From positions 1 through 62,333 of the forward strand of contig JBJEVY010000075.1 of assembly GCA_051884775.1 (NCBI GenBank): a stretch of 62,333 bases of DNA. The letters are read 5' to 3'. Position 1 is the first letter of the stretch. Every line of letters starts with the position of its first letter. A program made the position numbers and the translations under genes. Positions 3,389 through 46,777 of this stretch are shown here, piece after piece. The notes beneath the pieces are model-generated. The model searched no databases. It was not told the DNA's origin and saw only the letters and a program-made list of their open reading frames with translations. The DNA is from Candidatus Spyradenecus sp. GTDB taxonomy: Bacteria > Verrucomicrobiota > Kiritimatiellia > RFP12 > DVOR01.

Positions 3389-3398
3389 CTCTCCTCCG

Positions 3399-11658: not shown

Positions 11659-11860
11659 GTGAACGGTGAGAGGTGAACGGTGAACGGTGAGGTGCTCGCT
11701 ACGCTCGCGTGAGGTGCCGCTGCGCGGCGTGAGGGTGGCGGCTGCGCCGCCGTGAGGGGGCGGCCTGGCGGAGCAGGCCGCTGCACAACGCTTACCGCCC
11801 TCACGCGCGCCCCTGCGCGCCTTTCCCCTTTTTGACATAACTCCTTCGCTTCGCTCGGAC
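11641..11860 (+). repeat. Composite intergenic cassette, copy 1 (heptads, GTGAGG-anchored hairpins, conserved TTGACATA..CTCCTTCGCTTCGCTCGGAC block)
   Basis: 11687-11771 is near-identical to 36877-36961. 11826-11870 is near-identical to 37061-37105. Heptads (GTGAACG/GTGAGAG) span 11659-11694. Confidence 0.85.
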
Positions 11861-17730: not shown

Positions 17731-18125
17731 TAGACGAGAGGCGATAGACGAGGAGGCTGTCGCCGGAGGTGGAGCGTCCGTCCGATGGACCGCCAGTTCC
17801 TCCGTCGCGGAACGCGCACTGTCGACTGTCGACTGTTGACTGTCGACTGGGCGCGCAGCGCCCCGCCCCGGGTTGACCTCGCATCCGCCCCGGGTTCGAG
17901 GTCGATCCGCCCCGGGTGAAGTTTTCGATAGGCAAGAGGCGGTAGGCGAGGAGGCTGTCGCCGGAGGTGGAGCATCCGTCCGATGGACCGCCAGTTCCTC
18001 CGTCGCGGAACGCGCACTGTCGACTGTCGACTGTTGACTGTCGACTGGGCGCGCATCGCCCCGCCCCGGGTTGACCTCGCATCCGCCCCGGGTTGGGGTC
18101 GGACTCGGGGCGGGTGCGTTTTCGG
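17711..18125. repeat. 198-bp tandem duplication (about 2.1 copies) upstream of, or in the 5' end of, the GT-C gene
   Basis: Unit 1 is 17711-17908 and unit 2 is 17909-18106, with a partial third. Each unit carries a GTCGACT heptad array (17819-17849, 18017-18047), a CCGTCGCGGAACGCGC core and three 22-bp-phased CCGCCCCGGGTT motifs. Confidence 0.9.
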
Positions 18126-18174
18126 GGTGAGGGAGGGGTGTGGGAAGGGGCTCGGCCATCGGCAGGGACCTCAA

Positions 18175-20118: not shown

Positions 20119-20207
20119 GATGACGGAAGACGAATGACAGAGAACAGAGGCCTCGGCCGATCCGTCTCGGAACGTGTCCTGTCCTCTGTCCTCTGTCATC
20201 GGTCGTC
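20119..20207. repeat. Inverted pair of GATGACA/GAGGACA heptad arrays immediately upstream of the membrane-protein ATG
   Basis: Left arm 20119-20150 is gatgacggaagacgaatgacagagaacagagg. Right arm 20174-20207 is gtgtcctgtcctctgtcctctgtcatcggtcgtc. An 18-bp stem has 2 mismatches; the core is ccgtctcggaacgtg. Confidence 0.8.
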
Positions 20208-21672: not shown

Positions 21673-21857
21673 CAACCACAGAGGCACGCAAAGCCACGCC
21701 GAAATAGACGCGGGGTGAGCAACCACAGAGAAGCGCAAAGACACGCAAAGAAGCACAAAGGGTTGTGGAGGCCTTGTCACGCCGAAATAGACGCAGGGAA
21801 GCAACCACAGAGAAGCACAGAGTTCACAAAGAAAGGCACGCAGAGGCACGCAGGGGT
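21673..21857 (-). repeat. Family-A repeat array, reverse orientation
   Basis: aaccacagag..cacaaagggttgtggaggccttgtcacgccgaaatagacgcaggg is the reverse complement of units at 12015-12224. Confidence 0.85.
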
Positions 21858-21935
21858 TATCGAAGCAGGTACATGAAGCGAAGCACATAGCCATTAAGAG
21901 TTTTGCTGTGGCCTGCTCCGCCAGGCCACCCGCAC

Positions 21936-22072
21936 GCGCCAAAGGCGCACCTCACGGCCCGAAGGGCCACCCTCACGCGCCGAAGGCGCACCTCACGGCC
22001 CGAAGGGCCACCCTCACGCGCCGAAGGCGCACCTCACGGCCCGAAGGGCCACCCTCACGCGCCGAAGGCACC
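21936..22072 (+). repeat. 41-bp tandem repeat (3.3 copies) of paired GAA-triloop hairpins
   Basis: The unit gcgccgaaggcgcacctcacggcccgaagggccaccctcac starts at 21936, 21977, 22018 and 22059. Confidence 0.9.
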
Positions 22073-22149: not shown

Positions 22150-25100
22150 TTAGGGGGTGGAGGTCGTCTTCGAGGCGCGGACGGTGAAGCCATGCGTGCC
22201 AAGACCCAGACCCGACATCGGCAGGGCGAACCACCGCTCGCCCGTGCCCGCTGTAATGCCGAACTGAGCGGAAAGCGTATCGGCATCGAGCAACGTCGCG
22301 CCAGAATCGGCGTCATTGAGCCACAGCGTCACCGTGGTGCCCTCGGCGTATCCGGCGGCGGAAGCATCCTCCGCCTTGCCATTGGAGACCTTGGCGCAAG
22401 TCAGCACATAGAGCTGCGCGGCAGCATCGCCCGCCAACTGCGCCTCCTTGATGGTAATATCACTCACGCCAAAGTCGTAGGTGACCACGGCCGTAGCCGT
22501 TGTGCTGAAGCCACCATCCCAATCGGGCGTAAGAACCAGGGTCGTCTCCAGGTTCGTGAAGCAATCGACCGCTTGTACGCTGCCCTTTACCTCACCGACC
22601 GTACTCTGCGTTGTGATGTCCGTGACCTTCGTGATGATATAGCCCTTGCCGGCCCACGCATCAAGCTCCTCTTGAATGGCCGTCTTCACCGCATCGTTCT
22701 CGGAAACCGCTGCGGGCAGGGTGTCTGTCCCCAGCTTCTTCAACACGCTCATCGTCACATCCGTGCCAAAGAAGCCCGTTGCTTCGCTCAGATAGAGTTC
22801 CAGCGCAGTGGCGGAGGTTTCCAGCGTGAAGTGCTCCGACGACCCGGCAGCAAAGACCATCAGCTGGACCGGCTCAGTGGCGCGGACAGTCACCGTGCCA
22901 CTCTCGGGCCAGGTAATGTCTACGCCCGCCAGCGACAGCGATCCGCCAGCGACAGAGTTCTTGGCATCGAAGATGGCCCCCGCCTCAAAGACGATTGGCA
23001 TCTCAATGGCCCCCTCACCAGAGAGCACCTGATTGGCTGCAACTGTCACCACCGGCTTGGTCGTCACCGACTCCGCAAGCTCCATAGAGAGTGTTGCGCT
23101 CTTAAGCGTCAACTCGTTCACGCTCAAGCCCGTCTCGTTGTCACGCGCGGCGTGCAACACCAAGCCACTCTTAAGCGTCAACTTGCCGGGTGCCAAGCGG
23201 TTCGTCTGGTCGGCCGCAAAGACATACTTCGATGCAGCCTTGACCTCCACTTCACCTGCGCCAGTCACATTCGCATTCATCTGACGGGCCGTGTCGACGA
23301 CCAGCTTGCCGCCCTCGGCGACCGTCACCGTCGTCGTTGCCGGCAACATCACACTCTGCGTCCCGGCCGTGCCAACCGTGTAGGTGGCCCCGGCAGCAAT
23401 ATCAATGGCGCTGATGTCGCACCCAGCGGCCGCCTGCGAGACCTGCGTCGCGGCCGTGCCATCGCCGATGACCACCTTGCCCGCGCCCGTCACCGAGGCG
23501 GACAGCGTCGTAGCCAAGGTAGGCATAAGACGCAGTTCCGAGTTGGCGGCCACCTCAATGGCCCCCGCGTAAGTCGCCACGCCATCGGCCACTGTACCCA
23601 GTGTTCCGGCCAGGGTGAGCGTAGAGGCGGTTGTGCCATCGCCGAGGGTGAGGCGGCCGGTACCACTGGTGCCCGCCACCACCGCGCCAGTCACCGTCGC
23701 GACCGAGGAAGAAGCAAAGGTGAAGTAGGAGTTCTTGCTAATCGCCAAGGTTCCGCCAAAGGTCGAGGCGGTCTGCCCCGTCAAGAAGCGACCCTTGAGG
23801 ACCAATCCAGAGGTCTGAGAGCCATTGCCGATGACCAGGCGGCTCGTCCCATCTGCGATGGCAATATCGCCCGACATCTCCTGCTTGATGGGCGAAGTCA
23901 AGGTCAGCGTGGCGCCGCGCCCCACCAGAAGGCTACCCTGGAAGGTCGCCAAATCGTTCGTCGCCGAGCCCAAGGTTGAGGCGATAGTCACAGCACTGTT
24001 CGACAACACGCCAACAACACCCGTGCCAGTAATCGACTTCGTGAGCGGCGTCACCGTATCTGCCACATCAAGCGGATAGAGCGTACCCGAAACGGCAACA
24101 CTGCTACTTGTCAGATGGTTGAGTGCGGCAATCTCCACCGCCGCAACACCCTCCACCGTCAGGGACTTGAAGTTTGCCACGGCCTCTTCAGTGCCCTCGT
24201 AGAAGACCATAAGGTTCTCGCCGCTCAGCGTAAGGTCAATCGTTGAGCAGTAGGCCGAGGACATATCCAGCGCAACATAGGCTCCATCCGCGGCCGCGGA
24301 GACATCCGCCGTTAGGTCCAGGCCCAACATAAAGATGTTCGAACTCACCTCCAGGCCATCCGAGCTCTTCCACGGCAAGGCGCTCCAGGCTGTAGCCGAT
24401 TCGCTCGCCGGCGCAACAGCCGAAAGAACCTTGGCCGTGTCCTTGACCAGCCAGTAGTAGCCCTGCTTCCATGGCAGCGTGTAGCCCGAGATGGCCGCGA
24501 AGCTGACATCGCTCTGCGCTGTGTAAAGCACCGGCTGCACCGCCGCCGTATGACCCGTCACCGTCACCGTGCCCGTGACCGACGAAACCCCCAGCACCCC
24601 CTGGCTCACATCCAACTGCGCGCCCTCAGCAAAGGTGACCTCGCCGGTGACCTTCCCCTTGCCAGAGATAACCGCTGTGCTGGCGAGGTTGACCGTGCCC
24701 GAGAGCGTGACATTCTCCGGCACCGAGAGGGTGCTGCCAAAGGTGAGGCTCGCGTCCGAAGCCATTGTAGCCGAGACCTCATTCGCGAAGGCCACGGGCA
24801 CATTGATGGTGCCGCTGCCCGAGAGGCTCTTCCCGGCGGAGAGGGTGAGCGTTGCGCCCCCAGAGAGCGTGCCATTCACCGTTACATCGCAGTTCTCCAC
24901 GGTGTAGGGGGTCGACGCATAGTTCGGCAAGGCGAGTGTAGCGGTGTTCGTCACTTCGAGGGTGCCGGCAAAGCCATCCTCGCCCGCGACAAGCCCCGTC
25001 TTCCCGGTGTCGCTATCGCGCCCGAGCGTCAAGGTCTTCCCCTCTGCCACGCTAATCTTGCCCGCGCCAACCACCTGGCGATAGGCCGTCGTCGTCTCCG

Positions 25101-28100
25101 TCACAGAGAGCTCGCCATCCACTGTCAGGAGCGCTGTGGCGTGATAGTCGATGGTCGGCCCGGCGAGGGTGCACGTGGCCCTTTCCGCAACCGTCAGCGC
25201 GGCCCCGGCCCCCAGCGTGGAGCCCGAGGCCAAAGTGCCCGTCCCCGTCACCTTGAGCGTCGGCGTTGCGCTCTGGTCTTGCGTAACCTTGCCGTTAAGC
25301 GTCAGTGTCGGCACCACGAGCGTTGCTGCGTAGAAGGTGCGCAACTGCAGCTCGCCTGTCGCCTCGACCGTCAGACTGTTCGTGAAGGGAGCCGTATAGT
25401 TATCGCCACCAATGCCGAAGATGAAACGCGAACTTGCCGGGACAACCGTCTCGCCCGCCCCGGTCACATTGATATAGGCGTAGCCGGAGGTCAACTTCAA
25501 GGTGCCCGCGTTCTCAATCGTTGCATTATCGGTGAACGAGCGCGCTGTCGTTTCGGTAATCGACTCGGGCGTGCCGGTGGCGACCTCCAGCGTGGCACCG
25601 GAAAGCACGCGAATCTTGCCGCCGCTGGCCGGAACCCACGGCTTCTTCACCGAGACCGTAGCCCCATTGACAATCGAGATGTTCTTGAGGAAGTCCGTCG
25701 TGCTACTCGGTGCCGTGGTCGAGCCAATCTGAATGACGAGCTGGTCGTTGCTGGCATTCGCCGGGGTTAGCTCGAAGCTGCCCTCGAAGTCTGCCGCAGA
25801 CCCAATCAGGAGGCTATACATCCACGCTCGGCTACTACCATCCGTTGCACCTTGGAACTTGCCGGTGCCGACCAAGGTGTTGACAACGATGTTCGCATTG
25901 CTAGTTGAGCTTCCATTGGAGAGGGTCAACCCCTCGCCGGTGAGGCGCAGCCGCGGGACCGTCAGGGCATTCATCCAGCCCGCCACGCCATCGAACTCCA
26001 CGGTGGAGTTGGCGTTGCCGTAGGCGTTCGGCCGCAGTTGCGTGTTCGAGCCCGTAATGCCGGAGACCGTGATGGTGCCGGTCCACGCAGCGCTATTGGA
26101 GATGCCGGGGAGGCCATCGACGGCACTCCCAGTCACATTCGGCACCACGCCTTGGAAGCGGAGCGTGCCCGAGCCGGTGATGGCGCGGCAGCTCTTCACG
26201 GCGGCACCATTGCTCACGCGCAGCGTTGCGCTCGCGTCGAGGTCCAGCGTGCCGGTGAAGTCGGCGAAAGGCTCGGTGGTGGCGTAGCCATTGGTCAGCG
26301 AAACCGTGCCGGTACCCGTGAAGGTCGGGAGGGTGGCGGGCGCCTCGGCGGTAGCCGCGCCCATGTCGAGCGTCAGGATTGCGTCGCTGCCCACCGAGCG
26401 CGTGGTAATCGCCGCCGTGCAGGGGAGCTGGACGCGGCTGTACCCCAGGAGCTCCAAGGTCCCAATCGTCGCGCCCTCGGCCAGCGAAAGGGTCAGCAGC
26501 TGGGCGGCGGCCGCGCTCTCAAAGCCCGTCACCACCACCTTCGTCAACTGCGCCTCGGCCGGGATTTCGAGGTTAATCGCCGCCGTTAGCGCGCTGCAGT
26601 CAATCGTGACAAGGCCCTCGGTCGGAACCGTCTGGCCGGACCACAGGGAAGTGTCGCTCCACGTGTGGTTCGCGTTGGTGGGCGACCAGATGGCGGAGGC
26701 GTTGGTGAGGACGAGGTCACCCGTGTCCTCCGCCAGCGAGGCGCTGAACTGGGTCTGCTCAACGCCCATACTGTCCCAAACCTTCACCTGCGAGAGGTTA
26801 CCGCTCCAGCGAACATTCGTCGTCAGCGTTGGCGAGCCCAACTGCTCGTCGCTCAGGCGCAGGACCAAGGTGCCCGTGCAACCTTCGGCGTTGGGCGTGA
26901 TGGTTTGGGCCGCGCTCTGCACTGGCAATACCAGCGTGCCGGAGGTCAATGTAACGGTGCCCGAGCCGAGGCAGCCATCCCCGACTTCCCAGGTGCCGCT
27001 CCCGGCCACTTCAATATTGAGGTGGGGCCCAATCGTGCCAAGCCAGGTGCCATTCTGCGCGCCAATCAGCTTGAGCGTGCGGTCGGTCCCGTCGCCCGTG
27101 CGCAGGGCGCAGCCGCTATTCACGGCCGGCTCGGTCAGCCCCGAGAGGACGTACGCGTAGGCCGTGCCGCGCAGGGTGCCCACGGTCACGGTATCGGCGT
27201 TTACGGCAAGGGACGAGTAGTTCTGGGCGTTCGCGCCATTGAGGTAGAGGTTGGCCGAGCCGAGGGCCGTATTGCTCGCCGCCACAAGGTAGTGCTGATA
27301 GGGGCGCGACTCGGTGCCGCCGGAAGCGCGGACGGTCTCAATGGCCCCGACGAAGCCAGTGTTATCGCCGGTAATTGTCAGCGTGGAGGGCGTGTAGTGG
27401 TTCGTGGTCTGGTTCCACTTTAAGGTGCCGGTGCCGCTCAGGGTGCCGGTGCCATCGGGGCTGCCCACGCTGATGAAGTTGTTCCACGAGGTTTGAGTGA
27501 CCGTCACGGTCGCGCTCCCGAGCGAGAGGACTTCGATATTCTCGCGGATGCTCTCGGCGTTACTGCCCAGCGCGATCGTCAAGGCCGACCCACTGGCCGC
27601 GACCTTCTTGACCGTGTGCCCGCCGGTCCCTGCGAGCGTGAGCGTGCCGGCCGCCTGTTGGAGTTCGCCGCCAAAGGTGGTGCCGCTGTTGAGCGTAACG
27701 ATGCCACTGGGCTTGGAGAGCGTGCCGGTATACCCCGCAGCATTGCCGATTGTCAGGTTCGGCGTGCCGGAATAGGTGGCGAAGGTGAGGTCCTTCGAAC
27801 CCGAAAGCGTCGAGAGGGTCAACGTGGTGCTGCCCGCCTGCGTAATCTTGGCGTTCTCGATAACCTCAACGGTCGAGAGCGTTGCCGTGCCATCCGCGCG
27901 CAAGGCCGCACCCCCATAGGCGTTTGTTTCGCTGTAGTTGGAGGCGCCGAGCACAAAGCGCGTCTGGGTACCCGTCTTACTCGCCGAATTGCTGTCTAAC
28001 CACAACTGGCCGCCCGTGAGGAAGATGGTGGCAACATTGGCAAAGCCGCCCGCCGACCCCACCAACCAACGGCCGGACTGAATATTGAGCGAGGCGGCAT

Positions 28101-29052
28101 TGCTGGCGCCATTGAAGGTCATATTCGTGTCATTCGCGGCTGCGAAGGTGGTAGAGTTCTCGACCCAGGTGCTGCTCTCGCCCAGCCCGGAGAAGGCACC
28201 CGTCGACAGCAAGAGGTTATAGAAGGCGCCGCTTGCATCGGTCGCGGTGAGGCCAGCACCGTTGCTCACCCCGGCGTTGCCGCCGTTCGTGTAGTTCACC
28301 CAGCTGTTCTGCGTCACCGAGACCTGTCCGCGCCCGGCCGTACCCGTGCTGATGTTCCCGGTGTAGTTCGAGCGCAGCGGCTTGCCCGTCTCGTCCAGGG
28401 CGAGCGCCATACATCCCGCTGCGCGGTGCATCAATGCCCCCGCCGCACTGACCGCGTCCGCCGATGTCAGGCGCTCGGTGTAGAGACTCACGCCATAGAG
28501 CTTCATCCCCGCCAAGCCAATCGTAAAAGACTTATAGACCCGACCTGACCACCTGAGGCCATTCTCCCCTAGGATGGACGCGCCGTCTTTGTAGATGTTG
28601 GTGCCATCGCTGGAGCCGTGCACGAGCGTCAACTTCGCACGCGTGCCGTCCCAAGCGGAGGTGGTGCTGTAGTTAGTGCCCGCGCTGTGGCCGAGATTGA
28701 GCGTTGTGCCGGTGAACTTAAGCCAGCCAACATTGTTATCCGTCGCAGTAAAGGCAAAGACGCGCCCCTCGGCGTTCGGGGTTCCCGCGAGCTCGGCCAT
28801 CAGGGAGAAGGCACCCGTGCCATCGCCTGTACCCGTCAGCGTGGCAGCACCGGTGAGCGTAATCGCGCCGGTTTCCGTATCCAGCGTGCCGGGGATCGTG
28901 AGCGTCCATTCGCCTTGAGTCAGCGTGTGCGTCGTCTCCTCGGCAGACGTCGTGCTCTTAAAACTTGCCCAATTAGCCGCGGGGGCGGCCCAGAGAAAAC
29001 CTGAACCTATCGCGGCGATAGAGGCCGCGACAAAGCGGATTAATGCTTTCAT
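22150..29052 (-). CDS. Giant exported protein: signal peptide, LamG/concanavalin-like domain, then about 2,000 aa of beta-strand (autotransporter-associated type) repeats
   Basis: Starts MKALIRFVAASIAAIGSGFLWA after an AGGAAAG SD. The segment LTLVHGSSDGTNIYKDGASI..YKSFTIGLAGMKLYGVSLY is LamG-like. The rest is G/T/S/A/L-rich repeats (GTLTLAGTG, TLTLSG etc.). No C-terminal anchor was recognised. Confidence 0.85.
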   Translation of the reverse strand: MKALIRFVAASIAAIGSGFLWAAPAANWASFKSTTSAEETTHTLTQGEWTLTIPGTLDTETGAITLTGAATLTGTGDGTGAFSLMAELAGTPNAEGRVFAFTATDNNVGWLKFTGTTLNLGHSAGTNYSTTSAWDGTRAKLTLVHGSSDGTNIYKDGASILGENGLRWSGRVYKSFTIGLAGMKLYGVSLYTERLTSADAVSAAGALMHRAAGCMALALDETGKPLRSNYTGNISTGTAGRGQVSVTQNSWVNYTNGGNAGVSNGAGLTATDASGAFYNLLLSTGAFSGLGESSTWVENSTTFAAANDTNMTFNGASNAASLNIQSGRWLVGSAGGFANVATIFLTGGQLWLDSNSASKTGTQTRFVLGASNYSETNAYGGAALRADGTATLSTVEVIENAKITQAGSTTLTLSTLSGSKDLTFATYSGTPNLTIGNAAGYTGTLSKPSGIVTLNSGTTFGGELQQAAGTLTLAGTGGHTVKKVAASGSALTIALGSNAESIRENIEVLSLGSATVTVTQTSWNNFISVGSPDGTGTLSGTGTLKWNQTTNHYTPSTLTITGDNTGFVGAIETVRASGGTESRPYQHYLVAASNTALGSANLYLNGANAQNYSSLAVNADTVTVGTLRGTAYAYVLSGLTEPAVNSGCALRTGDGTDRTLKLIGAQNGTWLGTIGPHLNIEVAGSGTWEVGDGCLGSGTVTLTSGTLVLPVQSAAQTITPNAEGCTGTLVLRLSDEQLGSPTLTTNVRWSGNLSQVKVWDSMGVEQTQFSASLAEDTGDLVLTNASAIWSPTNANHTWSDTSLWSGQTVPTEGLVTIDCSALTAAINLEIPAEAQLTKVVVTGFESAAAAQLLTLSLAEGATIGTLELLGYSRVQLPCTAAITTRSVGSDAILTLDMGAATAEAPATLPTFTGTGTVSLTNGYATTEPFADFTGTLDLDASATLRVSNGAAVKSCRAITGSGTLRFQGVVPNVTGSAVDGLPGISNSAAWTGTITVSGITGSNTQLRPNAYGNANSTVEFDGVAGWMNALTVPRLRLTGEGLTLSNGSSTSNANIVVNTLVGTGKFQGATDGSSRAWMYSLLIGSAADFEGSFELTPANASNDQLVIQIGSTTAPSSTTDFLKNISIVNGATVSVKKPWVPASGGKIRVLSGATLEVATGTPESITETTARSFTDNATIENAGTLKLTSGYAYINVTGAGETVVPASSRFIFGIGGDNYTAPFTNSLTVEATGELQLRTFYAATLVVPTLTLNGKVTQDQSATPTLKVTGTGTLASGSTLGAGAALTVAERATCTLAGPTIDYHATALLTVDGELSVTETTTAYRQVVGAGKISVAEGKTLTLGRDSDTGKTGLVAGEDGFAGTLEVTNTATLALPNYASTPYTVENCDVTVNGTLSGGATLTLSAGKSLSGSGTINVPVAFANEVSATMASDASLTFGSTLSVPENVTLSGTVNLASTAVISGKGKVTGEVTFAEGAQLDVSQGVLGVSSVTGTVTVTGHTAAVQPVLYTAQSDVSFAAISGYTLPWKQGYYWLVKDTAKVLSAVAPASESATAWSALPWKSSDGLEVSSNIFMLGLDLTADVSAAADGAYVALDMSSAYCSTIDLTLSGENLMVFYEGTEEAVANFKSLTVEGVAAVEIAALNHLTSSSVAVSGTLYPLDVADTVTPLTKSITGTGVVGVLSNSAVTIASTLGSATNDLATFQGSLLVGRGATLTLTSPIKQEMSGDIAIADGTSRLVIGNGSQTSGLVLKGRFLTGQTASTFGGTLAISKNSYFTFASSSVATVTGAVVAGTSGTGRLTLGDGTTASTLTLAGTLGTVADGVATYAGAIEVAANSELRLMPTLATTLSASVTGAGKVVIGDGTAATQVSQAAAGCDISAIDIAAGATYTVGTAGTQSVMLPATTTVTVAEGGKLVVDTARQMNANVTGAGEVEVKAASKYVFAADQTNRLAPGKLTLKSGLVLHAARDNETGLSVNELTLKSATLSMELAESVTTKPVVTVAANQVLSGEGAIEMPIVFEAGAIFDAKNSVAGGSLSLAGVDITWPESGTVTVRATEPVQLMVFAAGSSEHFTLETSATALELYLSEATGFFGTDVTMSVLKKLGTDTLPAAVSENDAVKTAIQEELDAWAGKGYIITKVTDITTQSTVGEVKGSVQAVDCFTNLETTLVLTPDWDGGFSTTATAVVTYDFGVSDITIKEAQLAGDAAAQLYVLTCAKVSNGKAEDASAAGYAEGTTVTLWLNDADSGATLLDADTLSAQFGITAGTGERWFALPMSGLGLGTHGFTVRASKTTSTP

Positions 29053-29132
29053 CTCATCTTTCCTTTCATCTCTAGTAGAAGAGGTTATGGGGCCTCTTCT
29101 CCCACTTGACAGGTTCAGTTTAACATCTTTTA

Positions 29133-29142
29133 CCCCCCCCCC
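29133..29142 (-). promoter_or_regulatory. Homopolymeric C10 (G10 on the coding strand) tract in the upstream region of the giant gene
   Basis: tacccccccccc-gtgcaa. On the minus strand, TTGCAC (candidate -35, 29143-29148) is followed directly by G10. It lies about 80 nt upstream of the ATG at 29052. Confidence 0.45.
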
Positions 29143-29215
29143 GTGCAAGTGGTTTTGCGACTATTTTTTGTGGGCGCGAGGCGCTAGGCTCGCAGCGGCT
29201 GGGCGCTGCGAGCCC

Positions 29216-29276
29216 GTGAACGGTGAACGGTGAACGGTGAGAGGGGGCGGAGAGCCCAGCGGACAGCGGACAGCGG
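29216..29276 (+). repeat. Heptad arrays (GTGAACG x3-4, then GCGGACA x2)
   Basis: gtgaacggtgaacggtgaacggtgagagg at 29216-29245 and gcggacagcggacagcgg at 29259-29276. Confidence 0.85.
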
Positions 29277-29385
29277 GCGGCCTGGCGGAGCAGGCCGCTG
29301 CACAACGCTTACCGGCGCTCGCTGACGCTCGCTGCACCGCGCAAGCGCGGTGCCACGGAACGGGCAACGGCAGGAGGAGGGCTGG
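29262..29385 (+). repeat. 124-bp direct repeat, copy 1 (flanks an AT-rich DUF3800 remnant)
   Basis: Identical by eye to 30012-30135. Contains the CGGCCTGGCGGAGCAGGCCG and GCACCGCGCAAGCGCGGTGC hairpins. Confidence 0.9.
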
Positions 29386-29425
29386 CCTTCCGGTAAAGGG
29401 GCCCCAGCGCCGGGCGGGGTGGAGG

Positions 29426-29493
29426 CCAGGCGCGGCCATTGGAGCGGCCGAGGTGCCGGCCAGGCGCGGCCATTGGAGCGGCCGGGGTGCCGG
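29426..29493 (+). repeat. 34-bp tandem repeat x2 (CCAGGCGCGGCCATTGGAGCGGCCGRGGTGCCGG)
   Basis: Units at 29426-29459 and 29460-29493, with related single copies near 30193 and 42494. Confidence 0.8.
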
Positions 29494-29509
29494 GCGGATT
29501 GAACACTTT

Positions 29510-29893
29510 ATGCGCGAGTGCCACGATAAGCATACCGCAATCTTGATTACCGACGATGTGAGTAAGCAGAAGAACCTACAGACGACCATCGCGCATGTTA
29601 ATCTTTATCGAATGGGTTCAACGGCTGGTGTTAAGTTAAAGCATATCATTGAAATGCCGCTCTTCGTCAGTAGCGCCACCTGTGTGGGTGTTCAATTGGC
29701 GGATCTTTGCGCCTACAATGTCTATCGGCGTTTCACGGCCAACGACCCAGACTATCCCTTCTTCAAGAAGATTGAGCCTTACTTCTACTCTTCGGGCCGG
29801 ACGCCGGCACAAAAAACGGACGGATTGAAAGTCTTTCCGCCCGATCAAAAACAAGAGAATGAAGTTCGGCTGGGATTATCCATATCGAGCTAA
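29510..29893 (+). pseudogene. Truncated DUF3800-like gene fragment in a visibly AT-richer segment
   Basis: C-terminal-type motif VGVQLADLCAYNVYRRF. No N-terminal DUF3800 half was seen. Only the part from ATG 29510 looks coding; the upstream part of ORF 29237-29893 is repeat-derived. Confidence 0.45.
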
Positions 29894-30011
29894 CTAGTAG
29901 CACCGAACTGTGATTAGTGTATAACAAGGTGCACCACAAAGTCAACTTGGGCGCTGCGCGGTGGGGGGCGCGGGGCGCCCGTGAACGGGGGAGAGCGCTG
30001 CGCGCCTAGCA

Positions 30012-30135
30012 GACAGCGGACAGCGGGCGGCCTGGCGGAGCAGGCCGCTGCACAACGCTTACCGGCGCTCGCTGACGCTCGCTGCACCGCGCAAGCGCGG
30101 TGCCACGGAACGGGCAACGGCAGGAGGAGGGCTGG
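30012..30135 (+). repeat. 124-bp direct repeat, copy 2
   Basis: Identical by eye to 29262-29385, offset 750 bp. Confidence 0.9.
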
Positions 30136-30155
30136 ATGGGGGGCGCGGGGCGCCC

Positions 30156-30190
30156 GTGAACGGTGAGAGGTGAACGGTGAGAGGTGGAGG
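30156..30190 (+). repeat. Heptad array (GTGAACG/GTGAGAG)
   Basis: gtgaacggtgagaggtgaacggtgagaggtggagg. Confidence 0.85.
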
Positions 30191-30260
30191 GGGCCAGGCG
30201 CGGCCATTGGAGCGGCTGGGGTTTCTTGGAGTGCGGGGGCGTTGCCCCCCGCGCCGGGGG

Positions 30261-30288
30261 CTAGCAGCTAACAGCTAACCGCTAGCGG
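30261..30288 (-). repeat. Heptad array of the TAGC family (reverse orientation) overlapping the mnmA stop
   Basis: ctagcag ctaacag ctaaccg ctagcgg, the reverse complement of units in 35417-35535. Confidence 0.75.
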
Positions 30289-31379
30289 CTTTCTTCGGCG
30301 ATGGTGGCGCCGCCGAGGAGGTAGGCTCCGCGATAGAAGACGCAGGCTTGGCCTGGGGTGAGGAGGGCTTGGGGGGAGGCGGGGTGGACGGTGAGGTCCT
30401 CGGTGAGGGTGCAGTCGAAGGGGGGGTGGTGGTAGCGGGTGACGGCTTGGCAGGTGAGGGGGAAGGTGGGGGGGATGAGCCAGTGGGGGTCGCGGACGGC
30501 GAAGGCGGGGCGGAGGAGGGCTTCGCGGGGGCCGAGGGTGAGGGTGTTGGCGGCGCGGTCGAGGGCGACGACGAAGGCGCGCGAGCCGGTGGCGATGCCC
30601 AGGCCTTTGCGTTGGCCGCGGGTGTAGTTGGCCAGGCCGGTGTGGGTGCCGAGGCGGCGGCCGGCGGTATCGAGGATGGGGCCGGGGGTGGCGGTTTCTG
30701 GGTGGCGGCGGCGGAGTTCGGGGCGGTAGTCGCCACTGGGGAGGAAGCAGATGTCTTGGCTGCCGGCGGCGAGTTTGGCCTCGGGGATGGGGAGGCGCCA
30801 TTCGCGGGCGAGGGCGACGACTTGGGCGCGGGTCATGCCGGCGAGGGGGAAGTGGAGGTGGGGGAGGAGCTCGGGGGGGAGGGCGTAGAGGAAGTAGGAT
30901 TGGTCCTTGGCGGCATCGGTGGCGCAGCGGAGGGTGAGGCGGCCAGAGAGGGGCTCGCGGTCGAGGGCGACGTAGTGACCGGTGGCCATGGGGCCGCCGA
31001 TGGCGCGCTGGAGGAGGCCGAACTTGAGGCGGGGGTTGCACCAGGCGCAGGGATTGGGGGTCTGACCGGCGGCGTAGGCGGCAAAGAAGGGGGCGACCAC
31101 CTCGCGCTCGAAGGCGTCGCGCAGGTCGAGGAGGTGGAGGGGCACGCCCAGGGCAGCGGCGAGCTCGACCACGCCGGGGGCCGGTTCGGCCGAGCAGGTG
31201 AGCATGTGCCAGGCTTCCACCGCGTAGCCTTGGCGCTGGAGCAGCCGGACGCAGACGGCGGAATCGACCCCGCCGGAAAAAGCGACACCAATGGAAGGGA
31301 GCTCGCTACGCTCGCAGTGAACAGTCGACAGTCGACAGTCGACAGGGCTCGCTTCGCTCGCGCAGGGGAGGTCAGCCAT
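30282..31379 (-). CDS. mnmA: tRNA-specific 2-thiouridylase MnmA
   Basis: PP-loop GVAFSGGVDSAV plus NPCAWCN and DQSYFL motifs. GGAG SD lies 6 nt before the ATG at 31379. The first roughly 25 codons are encoded by repeat modules. Confidence 0.9.
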   Translation of the reverse strand: MADLPCASEASPVDCRLSTVHCERSELPSIGVAFSGGVDSAVCVRLLQRQGYAVEAWHMLTCSAEPAPGVVELAAALGVPLHLLDLRDAFEREVVAPFFAAYAAGQTPNPCAWCNPRLKFGLLQRAIGGPMATGHYVALDREPLSGRLTLRCATDAAKDQSYFLYALPPELLPHLHFPLAGMTRAQVVALAREWRLPIPEAKLAAGSQDICFLPSGDYRPELRRRHPETATPGPILDTAGRRLGTHTGLANYTRGQRKGLGIATGSRAFVVALDRAANTLTLGPREALLRPAFAVRDPHWLIPPTFPLTCQAVTRYHHPPFDCTLTEDLTVHPASPQALLTPGQACVFYRGAYLLGGATIAEESR

Positions 31380-31434
31380 CGGTCACTCCGTCGCGGCACG
31401 CGCCTGTCGACTGTTCACTGTCAACTGACGACTC
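31317..31434. repeat. Inverted pair of GTCGACA/GTGAACA heptad arrays bracketing the mnmA start codon
   Basis: Left arm is 31317-31345 and right arm is 31404-31434. The core contains ccgtcgcggcacgcgc (31388-31403), the SD and the ATG. GCTCGCTACGCTCGC lies at 31302-31316. Confidence 0.85.
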
Positions 31435-32401
31435 ATTCTAACGGCAGCTCCAATTGGCCGGAGATCATCATCTTGTGGGCGCCGGTGCCGTCGGAGGTGT
31501 CGTAGACACAGAACTTGACGGTGGGAAAGCGGCGGACGAGGTCCTGCTCGATGTATTGGCGGACGGCTTGGATGTTGTGGGGGTCGTCATCAGAGAAGCC
31601 GATGGAGATGGGCAGGCGCAGGGCGGACATGCCGGTGCGCTCGAGGATGCGCTCGATGTGGTCCATAAAGTCCTGAATGGCAAAGCGCTTGCGCAGTTCG
31701 GGCTTGAGGGGGGCTTCGCTGCCGAGGCGCTCGCTAAAGGACTTGGAGGTGATGGCGTGGTAGCGATTGAGGGCGAGGTAGTTGCGGATGACGCCGGTCT
31801 GCGAGGGGAAGGTCTGAATGTGGTCGAAGCAGTAGGCGTAGCCGCGGAGGTTGATGAGCATCACTTCGCGCTCGACGGGGGTGAGGACGCGCTCGATGAA
31901 GCGCTCAACGCCGCGGCGGAGGGTCTCGGGCTCGTGGCCGCGGGCGGTGACGATGGCGAAGAGGCGGCCTTCAACGAGGGTCTTGCGAAAGGTCTCGAAG
32001 CTTGGCGGGGCGTTGCGGCGCGCGGCGAGGATGTCATCGAGCGCGTGCTCGAGATCCTCCATAAAGGTGCCGCCGCCGAGGGGGGTGCGCTCATCTTGGA
32101 ACTCAACGAAGGCGAGTTCGCGGCGGCCCTGGGGGTAGCGATAGTGCGCAGTGTCCTTGCGGATGATGCTATAGGCGGCGGTGGAGCAGATGTGCGGGAC
32201 CCACCGGCCATCGGGCTCCAAGCGCTCCATGTGGATACGCGTGGGCATGGAGAGGATGTTGTCGTCCCAGTCGAAGATGTAGTACTTGAGGTCTCGGCCG
32301 CGAACGGACTCATTGACCCAGACGCCGTCGACGAAGGCGAGCTTGGCGAGCTCGAACTGCGCCAGGGCGGCGTGGAGGGTCTCGCTTTCGGCAGGGCTCA
32401 A
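31433..32401 (-). CDS. HAD-superfamily-like hydrolase, specific function unknown
   Basis: YYIFDWDDNIL (motif I-like), FAIVTARGH (motif II) and GFSDDDPHN (motif IV). The TTG start overlaps the speB stop (TTGA); the start is uncertain. Confidence 0.55.
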   Translation of the reverse strand: MSPAESETLHAALAQFELAKLAFVDGVWVNESVRGRDLKYYIFDWDDNILSMPTRIHMERLEPDGRWVPHICSTAAYSIIRKDTAHYRYPQGRRELAFVEFQDERTPLGGGTFMEDLEHALDDILAARRNAPPSFETFRKTLVEGRLFAIVTARGHEPETLRRGVERFIERVLTPVEREVMLINLRGYAYCFDHIQTFPSQTGVIRNYLALNRYHAITSKSFSERLGSEAPLKPELRKRFAIQDFMDHIERILERTGMSALRLPISIGFSDDDPHNIQAVRQYIEQDLVRRFPTVKFCVYDTSDGTGAHKMMISGQLELPLE

Positions 32402-33276
32402 GCCATCAGCCCCATCAGCTTTTGGGTGAGTTTGGCGGCGGTGAAGGTGGCGTGGTGGAGGCCGGGAATGGGGGCAAGCTCGACCACATCGCAGCCGACG
32501 ATGTCGTGGGAGGAGGCGATTTCGCGCAGAATGAAGAGGGCCGAATACCAGAGCAGACCGCCGGGGACAGGCGTGCCCGTGGCGGGCATCACCGCGGGGT
32601 CCAGACCGTCGACATCGAAGGTGACGTAGACGCGCTTGGGGAAGCCTTTGGGCAGGATGGGATCGGGCGGGCCCTTGAGGGCAAGGGTCTCGGCATCCAT
32701 CGCGAAGAGGGACTTCTTGTTGGCGGCGCGGTAGGCGGCCTCATCGGCACAGTAGGCGCGGGTGGCGAACTGGGCGAGGGGGAAGCCGAGCTCGTGGCAG
32801 CGGCGCAGGACGCAGGCGTGGGAGAGGGGCGAGCCTTCGTAGCTATCGCGCAGGTCGGCGTGGGCATCGAAGTGGACAATGCCAATCTCCTCGCCGCGGA
32901 CCTTGTAGGCCAAGAGCGCGCCGAGGGTGACGGTGTGCTCGCCGCCGAGGACGACCGGGCGGGCCCCGCAATCGAGCGCCTCGCCGACGGCCTTCTCGAT
33001 GGCGCGCAGCCAGGCTTCGGGGTCCTTGGCCTTGGCGGCGGTGGGCTTGACGGCCGGGCGGGTGTAAATGCCCCCGGCGCAGGGCTCTTCGCCGGCCTCG
33101 TAGGCCTCGAGCTGGTCGGAGGCTTCCAGAATAGCCGCCGGGCCATTGGCCGCGCCGGCGCCGTAGGAGACCGAGAGCTCCATCGGCACGGGGATCACAT
33201 GAAAGCGCGCGGCCTCCTTGTCGGCCGGTTCGTGTTCCGAGCCCAAGAAGGGCTGCTTATTCTGCTTGCTTGCCAT
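32398..33276 (-). CDS. speB: Agmatinase (ureohydrolase family)
   Basis: GGEHTV, HFDAHADL, VTFDVDGLDP and CDVVELAP Mn-ligand motifs. The start was chosen at MASKQNK (33276). Confidence 0.85.
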   Translation of the reverse strand: MASKQNKQPFLGSEHEPADKEAARFHVIPVPMELSVSYGAGAANGPAAILEASDQLEAYEAGEEPCAGGIYTRPAVKPTAAKAKDPEAWLRAIEKAVGEALDCGARPVVLGGEHTVTLGALLAYKVRGEEIGIVHFDAHADLRDSYEGSPLSHACVLRRCHELGFPLAQFATRAYCADEAAYRAANKKSLFAMDAETLALKGPPDPILPKGFPKRVYVTFDVDGLDPAVMPATGTPVPGGLLWYSALFILREIASSHDIVGCDVVELAPIPGLHHATFTAAKLTQKLMGLMA

Positions 33277-35410
33277 GGTCTGTTGCCTCCACCGGGATTG
33301 CCACACACGCATCGCCCTCGCAGGTCGGCGCTTCGGCCGCCGGGGTTTCCGCCGCCGCGCAGCGTTGACGCGGGGAGCAGGGGCAGAAGAACCACCACCC
33401 GGCCGCGACCGCCGCGCCGAGCAGCAGCACCGCCAGCGCGGTCCAGAGGGCCTTGTGGCTCACACGGGCCATCGGCGGGGCGGGGACGAAGCGCTTGCCC
33501 ACATAGCAGGCCTTTTGGGTGTAGTAGCGCCCGAGGGCGGCGGTCAGGCCAATGCGGCGGTTGACGGCCCAGCCCGAGGCGTTGAGAATCGGCGCGAGGT
33601 CGCGCGCACGCAGCTTGAGCCAGGTGAGGATAACGCTGGGCACGGAGACGGCCAAGATGAGCCCCACCACCACCAGCGCGGTCTTCCAGAGCGGCGTGCT
33701 GGTGAGGGCGGCCATCAACCCGGTCACGGCCGTGGCCACAAAGGAGAGGGCGATGCCCAGGGTCGCCACCGAGGCCATGGCCACGCCACCGCCGGGCGCC
33801 GCGGGCTTGTCCCCTTCGGCAGCGGCCTTCCCGGCGCTCTCGGCTTGGGCGGCGAGGGCAGCGGTCGCGGCCTCGTGCTTGCCGGCGAAGGTCTTGCGAA
33901 TGGCACCGGCGAAGGCATCGGCCACCTTGCGCCAGGGGGTGAAGAAGGCCTCGGTCAGGCTCATCGGGTTGGGCTCAAGGGTGGTGAGCGTGGCCTCCCA
34001 ATCGCGCCCTTCCAGATCGTAGAAGATGCCGTTGCGCCCAACGGCGAGGGTGGCGGCCGATCCGGCGGTAAAGACCGCGCAGATGGTGCGCTTTTCGCCG
34101 GTGGCCGGACGCGAGAGGGCGCAGTAGGCCAGGCAGCACTGCGAGGCCTTGGCCTGGGCGGCGTGGGCGGCGGCCGCTTGGTCGATGGGGAAGCAGAGCG
34201 AGCAGGCGCGGCCATCGAGGTAGAGCGTGCCCACCTGGTAGAGGGCGCCGGGCTGCGGGGGATAAAGTGCCTCGGTGTTCACGAAGTTGCGCAGGAAGCT
34301 TAGCAACCCGGTGCGCAGCGTCAGCAGACGGCAGAGGTCGCCATACGCGGCGGCCAGAGGCGCGCGCTTGGCATCGGCGGCAATGGCGCGCGTGAAGGCT
34401 TCGGCCACGGCGGGCTCGGCGGCCAGCGCGAGGACCTGCTCATCGAGCGCGGCGAAGCAGTCAGTCCCGGCGGGCTTGGCGGCCTGCCAGGCTTCGAGCG
34501 GGGCGACCTCGGCAGCGAGTTGCTGCCAGGCGGCCTCGGTGAGTGCCGGCGCCTTAGCCCAGGCCACGATGGGGGCCATCTGCGCAGCATAGAAGGGATT
34601 GAGGCGCCCGCCCTCCAGGGGCAACGCGCCCTCGGCCGTCGGCTCCAGCGCGAGCGGCGCGGCGGCCAACTCTTCGGCGGACTTGGGATTGGGGCGGCCC
34701 TCGGCGGCAGCGGGGTTGTAGCGCACCAGCTTGGCAGCGGCGAAGAAGGCCTCGATGGGCGCGCGCATCGCCGTTACGGCGGCGGCCAACTCCGGCGAAA
34801 GGGCGGCAACGGGCTGGGCGGCGCGCCAGACCTTGTAGGCTTCGAGCGCGGCAGCAAAGGCGGTCAGGTTCTCGGCCGAGAGCCCTTGCTTGCCGTCGAC
34901 CCCAGCCGTGCCGCCGGTGACGGCCACAACGGCCTCGCCCACCGGGGCAAACTTGCTGCCGGCGGCCTCAGGGGCCACCACGCCATCGCCATTCTCGGCG
35001 GCAGCCTTGAAGCCGGCGAAGGCCGCTTCCATCGCCTCGGGGGCCAGACGCTCCCCGGCGGCAACGAGGGTGCCAAAGAGCTCGGCCAGCGGCGCGCCCT
35101 CGGGCGTATTGGCGGCAATTTCAGCAAGGGAGAGCCCCGCCTCGCCGGCGAAGAGGCAATCGAAGGAGGCCAAGCGCGGCTTGAGCCAATCAATGGCCCC
35201 GAGCACTTCGGCCACGCGCACGCGCCCATCGTGATCGGTATCAAGCGCTTCGGCCACGGCGCGACCGCGGGGTCCGAGCCCCTTCACGGGGCAGGAGAGC
35301 GCCAGCCAGTAGGGCTTGGGCAACTCAGCGAGATGGGCAATATCCTCGCCCGAACGCAGGCGCACCTGCACGGTCCGGGCAACAGTACTGAAAGCAAAGG
35401 CGTGGCTCAT
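33257..35410 (-). CDS. Hypothetical 717-aa protein with N-terminal EF-hand loop, Ala-rich helical region and C-terminal TM helices
   Basis: Canonical EF-hand loop DTDHDGRVRVAE. Hydrophobic segments occur near the C-terminus, followed by a Cys-rich tail. The 3' end overlaps the speB start by 20 nt. Confidence 0.6.
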   Translation of the reverse strand: MSHAFAFSTVARTVQVRLRSGEDIAHLAELPKPYWLALSCPVKGLGPRGRAVAEALDTDHDGRVRVAEVLGAIDWLKPRLASFDCLFAGEAGLSLAEIAANTPEGAPLAELFGTLVAAGERLAPEAMEAAFAGFKAAAENGDGVVAPEAAGSKFAPVGEAVVAVTGGTAGVDGKQGLSAENLTAFAAALEAYKVWRAAQPVAALSPELAAAVTAMRAPIEAFFAAAKLVRYNPAAAEGRPNPKSAEELAAAPLALEPTAEGALPLEGGRLNPFYAAQMAPIVAWAKAPALTEAAWQQLAAEVAPLEAWQAAKPAGTDCFAALDEQVLALAAEPAVAEAFTRAIAADAKRAPLAAAYGDLCRLLTLRTGLLSFLRNFVNTEALYPPQPGALYQVGTLYLDGRACSLCFPIDQAAAAHAAQAKASQCCLAYCALSRPATGEKRTICAVFTAGSAATLAVGRNGIFYDLEGRDWEATLTTLEPNPMSLTEAFFTPWRKVADAFAGAIRKTFAGKHEAATAALAAQAESAGKAAAEGDKPAAPGGGVAMASVATLGIALSFVATAVTGLMAALTSTPLWKTALVVVGLILAVSVPSVILTWLKLRARDLAPILNASGWAVNRRIGLTAALGRYYTQKACYVGKRFVPAPPMARVSHKALWTALAVLLLGAAVAAGWWFFCPCSPRQRCAAAETPAAEAPTCEGDACVAIPVEATDHGKQAE

Positions 35411-35416
35411 AGGAAT

Positions 35417-35535
35417 GTTAGCGGTTAGCTGTTAGCTGTTAGCGGTTAGCTGTTAGCGGATAGCTGTTAGCGGATAGCTGTTAGCAGATAGCAGATAGCC
35501 GTTAGCGGATAGCTGTTGGCGGATAGCAGTTAGCG
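35417..35535 (+). repeat. 17 uninterrupted heptads (GTTAGCG/GTTAGCT/GATAGCT) filling the whole intergenic spacer
   Basis: gttagcg gttagct gttagct gttagcg gttagct gttagcg gatagct gttagcg gatagct gttagca gatagca gatagcc gttagcg gatagct gttggcg gatagca gttagcg, with no indel over 119 nt. Confidence 0.95.
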
Positions 35536-36802: not shown

Positions 36803-37105
36803 AAGGGGCGCTGCGCGCCCCGTGAACGGTGAACGGTGAACGGTGAACGGTGAACGGTGAGAGGTGAGAGGTGAACGGTGAGGTGCTCGCTACGCTCGCG
36901 TGAGGTGCCGTTGCGCGGCGTGAGGGTGGCGGCTATGCCGCCGTGAGGGGCGGCCTGGCGGGCCGTTGGGTGCGCCCCAGCGCCCCCGGATTTCCCGGAT
37001 TTTCCGGACTTTCCGGACTTTCCGGGTCCCTGCGTGCCTTCCCCACCCTGCGCAACCTTTACCCTTTTTGACATAGCTCCTTCGCTTCGCTCGGACTTGT
37101 GCTTC
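36803..37105 (+). repeat. Composite intergenic cassette, copy 2
   Basis: Nine heptads at 36822-36885 (GTGAACG x5, GTGAGAG x2 ...). 36877-36961 is near-identical to 11687-11771. A 9-nt repeat ccggayttt x5 lies at 36986-37029. 37061-37105 matches 11826-11870. A short family-A remnant spans 37095-37150. Confidence 0.85.
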
Positions 37106-37159
37106 TTTGCGTGTCTTTGCGCTTCTTTGTGGTTGCTCATCCTGCGTGCCTTTGCGGCA

Positions 37160-46759: not shown

Positions 46760-46777
46760 CCGTCATCTCCTCTCACC
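46731..46777 (-). repeat. GATGACA/GAGGAGA heptad array spanning the ung stop, the SD and the start codon of the glycosyltransferase fusion
   Basis: Minus strand reads TGA-gaggaga tgacgga tgacaga tgacaga ggagaga tgacagc. The repeat itself contains the GAGGAG and ATG elements. Confidence 0.8.

Follow-up and report, generated by a model that had tools for sequence, protein, structure and literature searches.

In a 62,333-nt stretch of DNA from the uncultured gut bacterium Candidatus Spyradenecus sp. (contig JBJEVY010000075.1 of assembly GCA_051884775.1; the whole stretch is called the window below), the housekeeping gene mnmA appears to begin inside a repeat element. Inverted arrays of 7-nt units surround an 18-nt core and the mnmA start codon. 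We consider it probable, at roughly 0.75 for the explanation as a whole, that a palindromic repeat was inserted upstream of mnmA and that the Shine-Dalgarno (SD) sequence, the ATG and a 29-residue N-terminus of the protein are all borne by it. Four observations carry this view: the anatomy of the junction, its ancestral state in relatives, the lack of an alternative canonical start, and a reading frame that stays conserved across strains whose repeat mosaics differ. The minus strand is read throughout, and all strain sequences are metagenome assemblies.

The gene directly upstream of mnmA is found in the list of open reading frames (ORFs) at 31433-32401 (minus strand) and encodes a 322-aa protein ending in ...KMMISGQLELPLE. 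It is a conserved neighbor of mnmA, lying directly upstream in L121-L127 and L131 as well (related loci and proteins are cited by L and P numbers); a Pfam scan of the protein gave no match. Its last codons are CTG CCG TTA GAA TGA, with the stop at 31435-31433, and the first heptamer of the element abuts this TGA without a gap. The left (5') arm (31404-31432, minus strand) reads GTCGTCA GTTGACA GTGAACA GTCGACA G, with four full units of the GNNGACA class (31432-31405), and was recovered both as one side of the inverted repeats and as a Tandem Repeats Finder (TRF) row at 31404-31433. The arm is followed by the 18-nt core GCGCGTGCCGCGACGGAG (31386-31403, minus strand), which has exact dispersed copies and whose last four bases are GGAG (31389-31386). 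A 6-nt spacer (tgaccg) then leads to the ATG of mnmA (31377-31379, minus strand), the sole canonical in-frame start upstream of the PP-loop; between it and the PP-loop the window has no in-frame ATG, GTG or TTG.

Codons 2-29 of mnmA (ADLPCASEASPVDCRLSTVHCERSELPS; 31293-31376, minus strand) come from repeat modules and are missing in all orthologues outside the Candidatus Spyradenecus cluster. They include the module GCGAGCGAAGCGAGC (31347-31361, minus strand), the right (3') arm (31315-31345, minus strand; CTGTCGA x3, CTGTTCA, CTG), and the module GCGAGCGTAGCGAGC (31301-31315, minus strand), a dispersed motif that adjoins heptamer arrays; the first and last of these form a pair of direct repeats flanking the right arm. 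This arm, detected by TRF at 31321-31345 (3.6 copies, 100%), belongs to the TGTCNNC class, complementary to that of the left arm; its translation is PVDCRLSTVH. TCCCTTCC sits between GCGAGCGTAGCGAGC and the conserved MnmA body, which extends from Ile30 to the stop (30282-31292, minus strand), carries the PP-loop SGGVDS and the tRNA_Me_trans domains, and begins ATT GGT GTC GCT TTT TCC GGC GGG GTC GAT TCC, or IGVAFSGGVDS. Homologues at 58-84% identity have the domains PF03054, PF20259 and PF20258 and conserve IGVAFSGGVDSAV. The element measures about 140 nt (31432 to ~31293). In the repeat search its inverted arms are 25-27 nt long, 81-88% complementary (95% over a 20-nt subset) and 56-66 nt apart, and the ATG-bearing segment is unique within the window. 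The array-core-ATG-array order described in the initial annotation can be read directly from the minus strand, except that the first degenerate unit, GTCGTCA, had been missed. The repeat-encoded peptide given there, ADLPCASEASPVDCRLSTVHCERSE, is correct, and the extension comprises 29 residues before Ile30 where about 25 codons had been estimated. A scan of 30200-33400 for sigma-70-like promoters found no site, and thus there is no sign of the element bringing a promoter; an Rfam search of the window gave only two tRNAs at the gathering threshold, and nothing at E<=1 in 31200-31520.

The closest MnmA homologues are proteins from metagenome-assembled genomes (MAGs) labelled Kiritimatiellia or Kiritimatiellae. 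Four relatives, L121-L124 (73-78% MnmA identity), have the gene order [~700 aa]-[arginase family]-[~323 aa]-[mnmA], as in the window. L122, L123 and L124 have no spacer, the stop of the upstream gene and the start of mnmA overlapping in GA-ATGA, and the L121 junction reads TAAgccGTG, with GTG as the mnmA start. The window retains GAATGA at the old junction. Taken together with the ATGA of the relatives, this places the element exactly in a translationally coupled junction. The ATG at 31436-31434, a relic of mnmA's ancestral start, shares bases with the upstream stop and opens a 17-codon ORF, MSRQLTVNSRQARAATE (31383-31436, minus strand), which spans the left arm and the core in the mnmA frame and ends with TGA 31385-31383, 3 nt before ATG 31379. 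More than 50 orthologues (58-78% identity) begin 7-30 residues before SGGVDS, with the single exception of P0008, called with 78. None of them shares the repeat-encoded extension, which bears out the suspicion that it is lineage-specific, and the few original N-terminal codons of mnmA appear to have been displaced by the element.

Reading frame and start codons in related strains

The MnmA of the window (P0123) belongs to a 90%-identity cluster labelled Candidatus Spyradenecus sp. or Lentisphaeraceae bacterium; the NCBI taxonomy assigns Candidatus Spyradenecus to the PVC-group phylum Lentisphaerota. Cluster members (~84-90% identity) that reach the 5' end have N-termini of 43-85 residues, all of them translated repeat modules, and the lengths of MnmA in the cluster are 365, 375, 385, 388, 404, 405, 409, 410, 411 and 416 aa. 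Several of the modules can be recognized in the peptides: SPVDCRLST comes from a CTGTCGA array, CLLSAVRCPLS from a GCTGTCC array, SSVIRHPSS from a TCCGTCA array, and ACSLPKCPQGASAGVER from a dispersed module termed 'H' (GCCGAAGTGCCCGCAGGGCGCTTCGGCCGGGGTGGAGCG...). A 16-residue difference between P0127 and P0121 covers the peptide from the GCGAGCGAAGCGAGC and GCGAGCGTAGCGAGC modules and the array between them.

Eight junctions were compared: the window, L001, L125, L126, L127/128, L129, L130 and L131. L130 starts inside the repeats, and counts of start codons rest on the other seven. The module mosaic differs in each of the eight, with no two architectures alike. Over 99-474 nt of repeats, the mnmA frame contains no stop codon in any junction, whereas the other frames contain 0-5; counted by frame, 8/8 junctions are stop-free in the mnmA frame, against 3/8 in frame +1 and 0/8 in the remaining one. 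In the seven informative junctions, canonical in-frame starts are confined to the repeats and the sequence upstream of them, the nearest being 24-66 codons before the PP-loop motif Phe, and in L126 the ancestral ATG is itself in frame and open for 112 codons. The earlier prediction of translation through the repeats would have been undermined by a start downstream of them, and none of the seven junctions offers a canonical one. Length differences tell a similar story. Downstream of the start, all pairwise differences are multiples of 3, whereas upstream of it remainders of 0, 1 and 2 occur in the ratio 2:4:4; single gaps divisible by 3 number 13/21 downstream and 5/21 upstream. The window differs from L001 by one 120-nt gap, L125 from L126 by one 3-nt gap, and L001 from L130 by gaps of 21 and 84 nt, while the window and L125 are collinear with ~91% identity on both sides of the block. 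An out-of-frame counter-example was sought among the assembled strains and none was found. Three proteins, P0128, P0130 and P0141, are called from internal starts; the two short calls, P0128 and P0130, are accounted for by contig rearrangement or truncation, with the frame still open, and the array of P0141 contains an ATG in frame. This comparison supports translation through the repeats indirectly but strongly. As regards gene calling, the predicted lengths of one orthologue span 303-416 aa, and some calls begin within the PP-loop (MDSAVCV...).

The GGAG that ends the core lies at -10 of mnmA, the position also occupied by the GGAG/AGGA motifs of many window genes, which agrees with the initial proposal that the core delivers the ribosome-binding site. 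Two types of start were seen among the strains. Type 1, MADLPC..., follows the core in the window and L125 and a different flank in L001; its ATG GCT GAC CTC CCC... is common to the window, L001, L125 and P0126. Type 2, MT[ED][ED]RQ(A...), occurs in seven cluster members and stems from a GATGACA/GAGGAGA array with GGAGGA a few bases before the ATG. A core-borne SD and ATG is one of at least two start solutions in the genus. The three claims of the initial annotation survive comparison with relatives, and its interpretation is supported.

Dispersed modules and a second element at larC/larE

The mnmA element is one instance of a much wider repeat landscape. The window (65.6% G+C) contains 19 tandem arrays of period 7, compared with 0-3 for periods 5, 6 and 8-11, and all 19 are located between conserved coding bodies. 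In 880 kb of unrelated high-GC loci there are 5 period-7 arrays, a density roughly 50-fold lower. These arrays are a feature of the genome and not a product of chance. Across ten loci of the lineage, 47 of 75 arrays are of the GNNGACA/TGTCNNC (GACAG/CTGTC) class.

The core is dispersed as well. It has exact minus-strand copies at 17800-17817, 17998-18015 and 31386-31403 and, on the same strand, a copy with 2 mismatches at 59484-59501; the copies outside mnmA had already been reported, at coordinates 2 nt off. Variants that had been listed at ~20161-20177, ~39415-31 and ~2141-57 also exist, each directly preceded by a heptamer array. At <=3 mismatches the core has 7 matches against 1.45 expected, a number reached in 0/100 shuffles. 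It always stands immediately 3' of a heptamer array, in the window as in L092, L100, L125 and L127, and the array flavors that precede it are GTCGACA, GCGGACA, GAGGACA, GCTGACA, GGTTAGC and GTGAACG. GCGAGCGTAGCGAGC has exact minus-strand copies at 11694, 36885 and 39232, with 9 matches against 1.3 expected, and further dispersed modules include a small hairpin, GCTCGC-TGAC-GCGAGC, and the H module. The copy at 59484-59528 (minus strand), found by the core and array scans, comes right after the stop of an S1-domain gene. Two more array-plus-core copies, (CAGTCGA)n + GCGCGTTCCGCGACGGAG (17800-18047, minus strand), belong to a 198-bp tandem duplication at 17709-18101 (2.0 copies, 94% identity) that holds a CAGTCGA array and an exact core in each copy, with a downstream CCTCCGGCGAC able to pair with GCGACGGAGG of the core. 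The longest ORF of the next gene (16213-18174) crosses this duplication, probably spuriously.

Beyond the window, a scan of genome contigs with a 16-nt core pattern, which is too short for the purpose, returned 119 loci that are mostly chance matches in high-GC genomes. The only genuine array-plus-core loci in that scan were L092 (Kiritimatiellae MAG HGM23427) and L100 (a Candidatus Spyradenecus MAG), both of the same lineage. A scan of metagenome contigs for ACAG-N0-1-core yielded six matches, all in coding sequence of unrelated bacteria and without arrays; the JGI set thus gave no member of the repeat family. A literature search found nothing on repeats in Kiritimatiellia or Spyradenecus. 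The idea that the element encodes a small protein of its own was ruled out, since the frame in which homologous modules are read varies from locus to locus (SAQTGQTHQAPA vs RLRRVKHIERQR).

The same architecture recurs in the larB-larC-larE operon, identified by domain scans at 3399-4088, 2138-3388 and 1243-2178, respectively. Here the arm-core-stop-ATG-arm element spans 2043-2185 (minus strand) at the larC/larE junction. Its left side comprises GTGAACA x2, GTCGACA x2 and a degenerate core ending in ACGGA; the larC stop TAG (2140-2138) is followed by ACAG and the larE ATG (2133), and some 70 nt past that ATG comes CTGCCGA CTGTCGA CTGCCGA CTGTCGA, leading into EKLLTVLRG..SGGVDS. The LarC domain PF01969 ends at residue 394/416, so that about 22 residues of the C-terminus are repeat-encoded, as are some 30 residues at the N-terminus of the window LarE. 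Distant LarE proteins start M-T/S-D/E-K/R-L directly at that helix, and other LarE relatives start MTEETDS.. or MTDDREQ.. from GATGACA arrays. The step between P0137 (296 aa) and P0135, P0136 and P0138 (289 aa) is 7 residues, or exactly 3 heptamers. In L138 (~300-340) one GATGACA array provides both signals, with the TGA of its first unit ending larC and the ATG of its fourth opening larE; the array may therefore have developed out of an ATGA junction. On sequence grounds, larC/larE looks like an independent replicate of the mnmA layout. Arrays of GATGACR/GAGGAGA units, each of which holds ATGA (a start/stop overlap) or a GGAGGA-like SD, were also seen on the minus strand at the starts of a 1013-aa glycosyltransferase (46733-46767), a 683-aa membrane protein (20180-20200) and larC (3390-3403).

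Explanations and known repeat systems

The observations can be assembled into a history of the junction. Intergenic DNA in this lineage is filled with mosaic modules, most commonly short heptamer arrays, mainly GNNGACA/TGTCNNC and often inverted around the core. Insertion of one such palindromic element into the 4-nt ATGA overlap would have put ~55 nt between the two genes and severed mnmA from its original start; initiation would then have moved to ATG 31379, with the 3' GGAG of the core as SD sequence, and the 3' arm and flanking modules would be read as the 29-residue extension. The extension is probably made, and tolerated as a disordered tail before beta-strand 1 of the PP-loop domain. 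The block presumably keeps changing, apparently through recombination or slippage between modules, with frame-breaking variants removed by selection. Since the earlier interpretation is supported by the relatives, it can be generalized: heptamer-array mosaics may colonize coupled junctions, donate an SD sequence and an ATG, and become translated.

A relay between the two genes may also operate in this strain. Ribosomes leaving the upstream gene could restart at the overlapping relic ATG, read the 17-codon ORF across the 5' arm and so melt the hairpin, and then stop 3 nt before ATG 31379 and reinitiate. The ancestral junction has the classical -4 overlap of ATGA stop/start coupling, and the window spacings lie within the reinitiation range: ATGA at 31436-31433 (-4 nt), TGA-ccg-ATG at 31385-31377 (+3 nt) and, at larE, TAG-acag-ATG at 2140-2131 (+4 nt). 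Both steps at mnmA and the single step at larE show the stop/start proximity of termination-reinitiation pairs, which in other organisms requires overlaps or very short spacers (PMC10666635). Unlike simple ATGA coupling, however, this would be a relay through an inserted repeat, and other strains lack it. We therefore treat it as a possibility and not as a conserved mechanism.

Several points weigh against the insertion of an element that brought its own start signals. No transposase or RAYT/Y1 domain was matched among the 30 proteins scanned, from 62 kb of genome only, and no target-site duplication is visible when the window junction is compared with the empty sites L122 and L124. The GGAG is predicted to pair with CCUCC 13 nt downstream of the AUG, with an unpaired probability of 0.25, although other genes show values in the same range. 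The relay is not conserved: in L125 and L127 at least ~23 nt separate the end of the relic ORF from the next start, and L125 carries TGG where the window has TGA. Openness of the mnmA frame is partly due to composition (66% GC), and the heptamers CTGTCGA, GCTGTCC and TCCGTCA contain no stop in any frame. Because modules are shared between strains, these do not count as independent observations, and the exact architecture of the window (365 aa) occurs in one assembly only.

How far do these points favor another explanation? If the block were an untranslated leader, MnmA would start non-canonically at ATT 31292 (Ile30) or CTG 31329 (Leu17), and the open frame would be a by-product of stop-poor repeats. 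Such a by-product might be expected, as several heptamers lack stops in all frames and frame +1 is also open in 3/8 junctions, and a late start would suit the orthologues, which begin merely 7-30 residues before SGGVDS. That said, neither ATT nor CTG has a preceding SD sequence, the Ile codon is ATC in L125, L126, L127, L129 and L131, the 8/8 count in the mnmA frame stands against 3/8 and 0/8 in the others, indels respect the frame downstream of the proposed start but not upstream, and the 3-heptamer step in LarE is what a translated array would produce; we regard a leader as highly improbable. Much the same can be said of a contingency locus, in which 7-nt slippage would shift mnmA (and larE) on and off to give phase-variable tRNA thiolation. 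Seven is not a multiple of 3, perfect arrays of 3-4 units lie inside the reading frame, and copy number varies between strains. Yet no array exceeds a short run of 3-5 units, the frame is kept in every assembled strain, the sole clean difference in copy number is a frame-preserving one of 3 units, the short calls P0128 and P0130 are explained by contig rearrangement or truncation and P0141 by an in-array ATG, and mnmA is a housekeeping gene, all of which makes phase variation very unlikely. Mis-assembly of the repeat block in a MAG contig is harder still to credit. Repeats are a known source of error and the 365-aa version comes from a single assembly, but reads are much longer than the arrays (<=32 nt), the same module types stand at the junction in seven independent assemblies from other samples, and the window and L125 run collinear at ~91% identity on both sides.

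A functional RNA hairpin, controlling translation, RNase III-type processing or stability and perhaps bound by a heptamer- or ACGGA-binding protein, would be compatible with insertion of the element; it is possible, but we find it doubtful. The predicted folding energy of the 161-nt RNA is -70.5 kcal/mol, whereas shuffles average -55.9 +/- 4.5 (z = -3.26) and only 1/200 of them were as stable. The left arm follows the upstream stop and the right arm falls in N-terminal coding sequence, an arrangement that recurs in L125, L126 and L127, and the predicted GGAG-CCUCC pairing leaves the AUG exposed. Moreover, the stem of the element before the 683-aa gene differs between the window and L125 by 1 compensatory, 3 wobble-compatible and 0 disruptive changes. 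This last pattern could reflect either structural selection or arm-to-arm conversion, since gene conversion would likewise keep palindromes paired. At mnmA itself the unit variants of the arms are out of register, strain differences are uncompensated, and no register-true covariation between the arms was found across strains. Accessibility of the mnmA start, examined as a test of occlusion, is no outlier among 18 genes (within the range of the 17 others), there is no Rfam match, and some strains use a different start module. A related idea is that heptamers and core act as lineage-specific portable cassettes for initiation or coupling, read by a CsrA-, Csp- or S1-like factor or tuned by slippage. 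Its basis is that GATGACA/GAGGAGA units carry ATG, TGA and SD within one 7-nt repeat and that the core ends in ACGGA(G/U); were it true, expression of mnmA and larE would be set or switched by copy number and hairpin register. We consider such cassettes unlikely.

Among known repeats, Rickettsia palindromic elements (RPEs) offer the closest functional analogue to the mnmA insertion. These are palindromic dispersed repeats that lie in frame within housekeeping genes and are translated and apparently tolerated (review PMC10969869). In-frame insertion with the ORF kept is the common trait, here in 8/8 strains. RPEs, however, are ~150 bp long, encode family-specific conserved peptides and usually sit inside ORFs, whereas the elements described here are mosaics of 7-nt arrays at gene junctions that replace the start codon and SD sequence and are rearranged between strains. 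The peptides vary by strain and the modules are read in different frames, so the conserved peptide of RPEs has no counterpart. The comparison is one by description, and a sequence relationship is not expected.

The closest structural analogue is the intergenic heptanucleotide repeat, as in TAACTGA of the Beggiatoaceae, the short tandemly repeated repetitive sequences (STRR) of cyanobacteria, and heptamer-rich genomes with long simple sequence repeats (LSSR). TAACTGA repeats of marine Beggiatoaceae lie a few nucleotides from start codons and are almost exclusively direct, with 169 direct sets and one indirect (PMC4679880); heptamers are the dominant LSSR class in several genomes (Mrazek 2007, as cited in PMC4679880). 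Short tandem 7-nt arrays (2-6 copies, some longer), intergenic and often near start codons, are common to all of these, and the window shows the over-representation and intergenic placement typical of LSSR and STRR. Unlike the Beggiatoaceae repeats, those of the present lineage, which belongs to a different phylum (PVC group), come in many flavors, are commonly inverted around an 18-nt core, and are partly translated.

Transposable elements of the miniature inverted-repeat type (MITEs) and REP/BIME-type elements can make in-frame fusions or supply expression signals (PMC10969869). With Correia, ERIC, BOX, RUP and REPIN elements, the Spyradenecus repeats have in common that they are small palindromic multi-copy mosaics, non-autonomous in appearance and co-transcribed with flanking genes. 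They do have inverted arms at their ends (25-27 nt, 81-88% complementary), but these are tandem heptamer arrays and not unique terminal inverted repeats. There are no fixed boundaries, and it is the modules that are dispersed, the whole element being unrepeated. In L001 a 13-nt repeat, GCCGAAGTGCCCG, flanks the ATG-bearing segment, but it belongs to another repeat module. As tested, the elements do not satisfy the definition of a MITE.

Simple sequence repeats at contingency loci drive phase variation, for example in Haemophilus and Neisseria. Non-triplet tandem units in a 5' coding region or leader are common to those loci and to mnmA; what differs is that the present arrays are short, the genes are housekeeping genes, the alleles are all in frame, and the one clean step is of 3 units. 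No pair of ON and OFF alleles was found among those assembled.

If the insertion at mnmA is read correctly, these junctions provide natural replicates of the way in which a housekeeping gene loses its start codon to an invading repeat and survives on the initiation signals and N-terminal tail that the repeat provides. The reading frame would be the only visible constraint while the block reshuffles between strains, and selfish-looking DNA would have been absorbed into an essential gene in a manner that is lineage-wide and strain-variable. For the annotation of PVC-group MAGs, 5' repeat blocks are a systematic hazard, and callers extend other ORFs through repeat blocks as well. The range of the poorly understood heptanucleotide repeats near starts is extended by one new phylum and by a new architecture, in which inverted heptamer arrays surround a core; should the repeats act in translation control, they would offer a testable model of the phenomenon, with clear predictions.

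Other repeat blocks in the window

The strand bias of the window is pronounced: its ~40 credible genes are all on the minus strand, except for a pyruvate formate-lyase-like gene at 4180-6504, and the core copies share this orientation. Downstream of mnmA, at 22150-29148, lies a gene for a 2332-aa protein that has no close counterpart. Its DNA aligns with the syntenic 2216-aa gene of L125 only in patches of 77-87% identity, compared with ~91% for the flanking genes, and the protein is presumably a fast-evolving giant surface protein. The 1.1-kb spacer between it and mnmA (29150-30280) consists wholly of mosaic repeats, in which a ~120-nt segment occurs both near 29260-29380 and near 30010-30130, alongside arrays of GTGAACG, CAGCGGA and GCTAACA; the counterpart in L125 is built of different modules, some in the opposite orientation.

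The longest array of the window, 17 GTTAGCG-type units (GCTAACA/GCTATCC on the minus strand), occupies 35417-35535 and runs up to the ATG of a 717-aa gene. This flavor has TAA or TAG in every frame and is therefore untranslatable. A pair of inverted H modules lies downstream of a HAD-hydrolase gene at 92-177 and 329-433, with 58-nt arms that are 81% complementary and 155 nt apart; this is the module that other strains translate as ACSLPKCPQGASAGVER in the N-terminus of MnmA. Another family, found at 11659-11770, 21924-22069, 36822-36960 and 61712-61830, combines CACCGTT/CACCTCT heptamers with units of 20-22 nt made up of CCTCACG and a small GC hairpin; these are followed by a terminator-like hairpin, GGGGCGCGC..GCGCCCC-TTTT, and a TATACT/TACAAT box just upstream of genes. 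Finally, an AT-richer dispersed module with CTTTGTGTTTCTTTGTG motifs occurs at 12014-12208 (as a tandem of 70 nt x 2.8), 21724-21853, 37064-37129 and 62031-62288, and in L125 at 4319-4420 and 19186-19680. Several genes have it on their upstream side, and it may be a promoter or leader region that they share.

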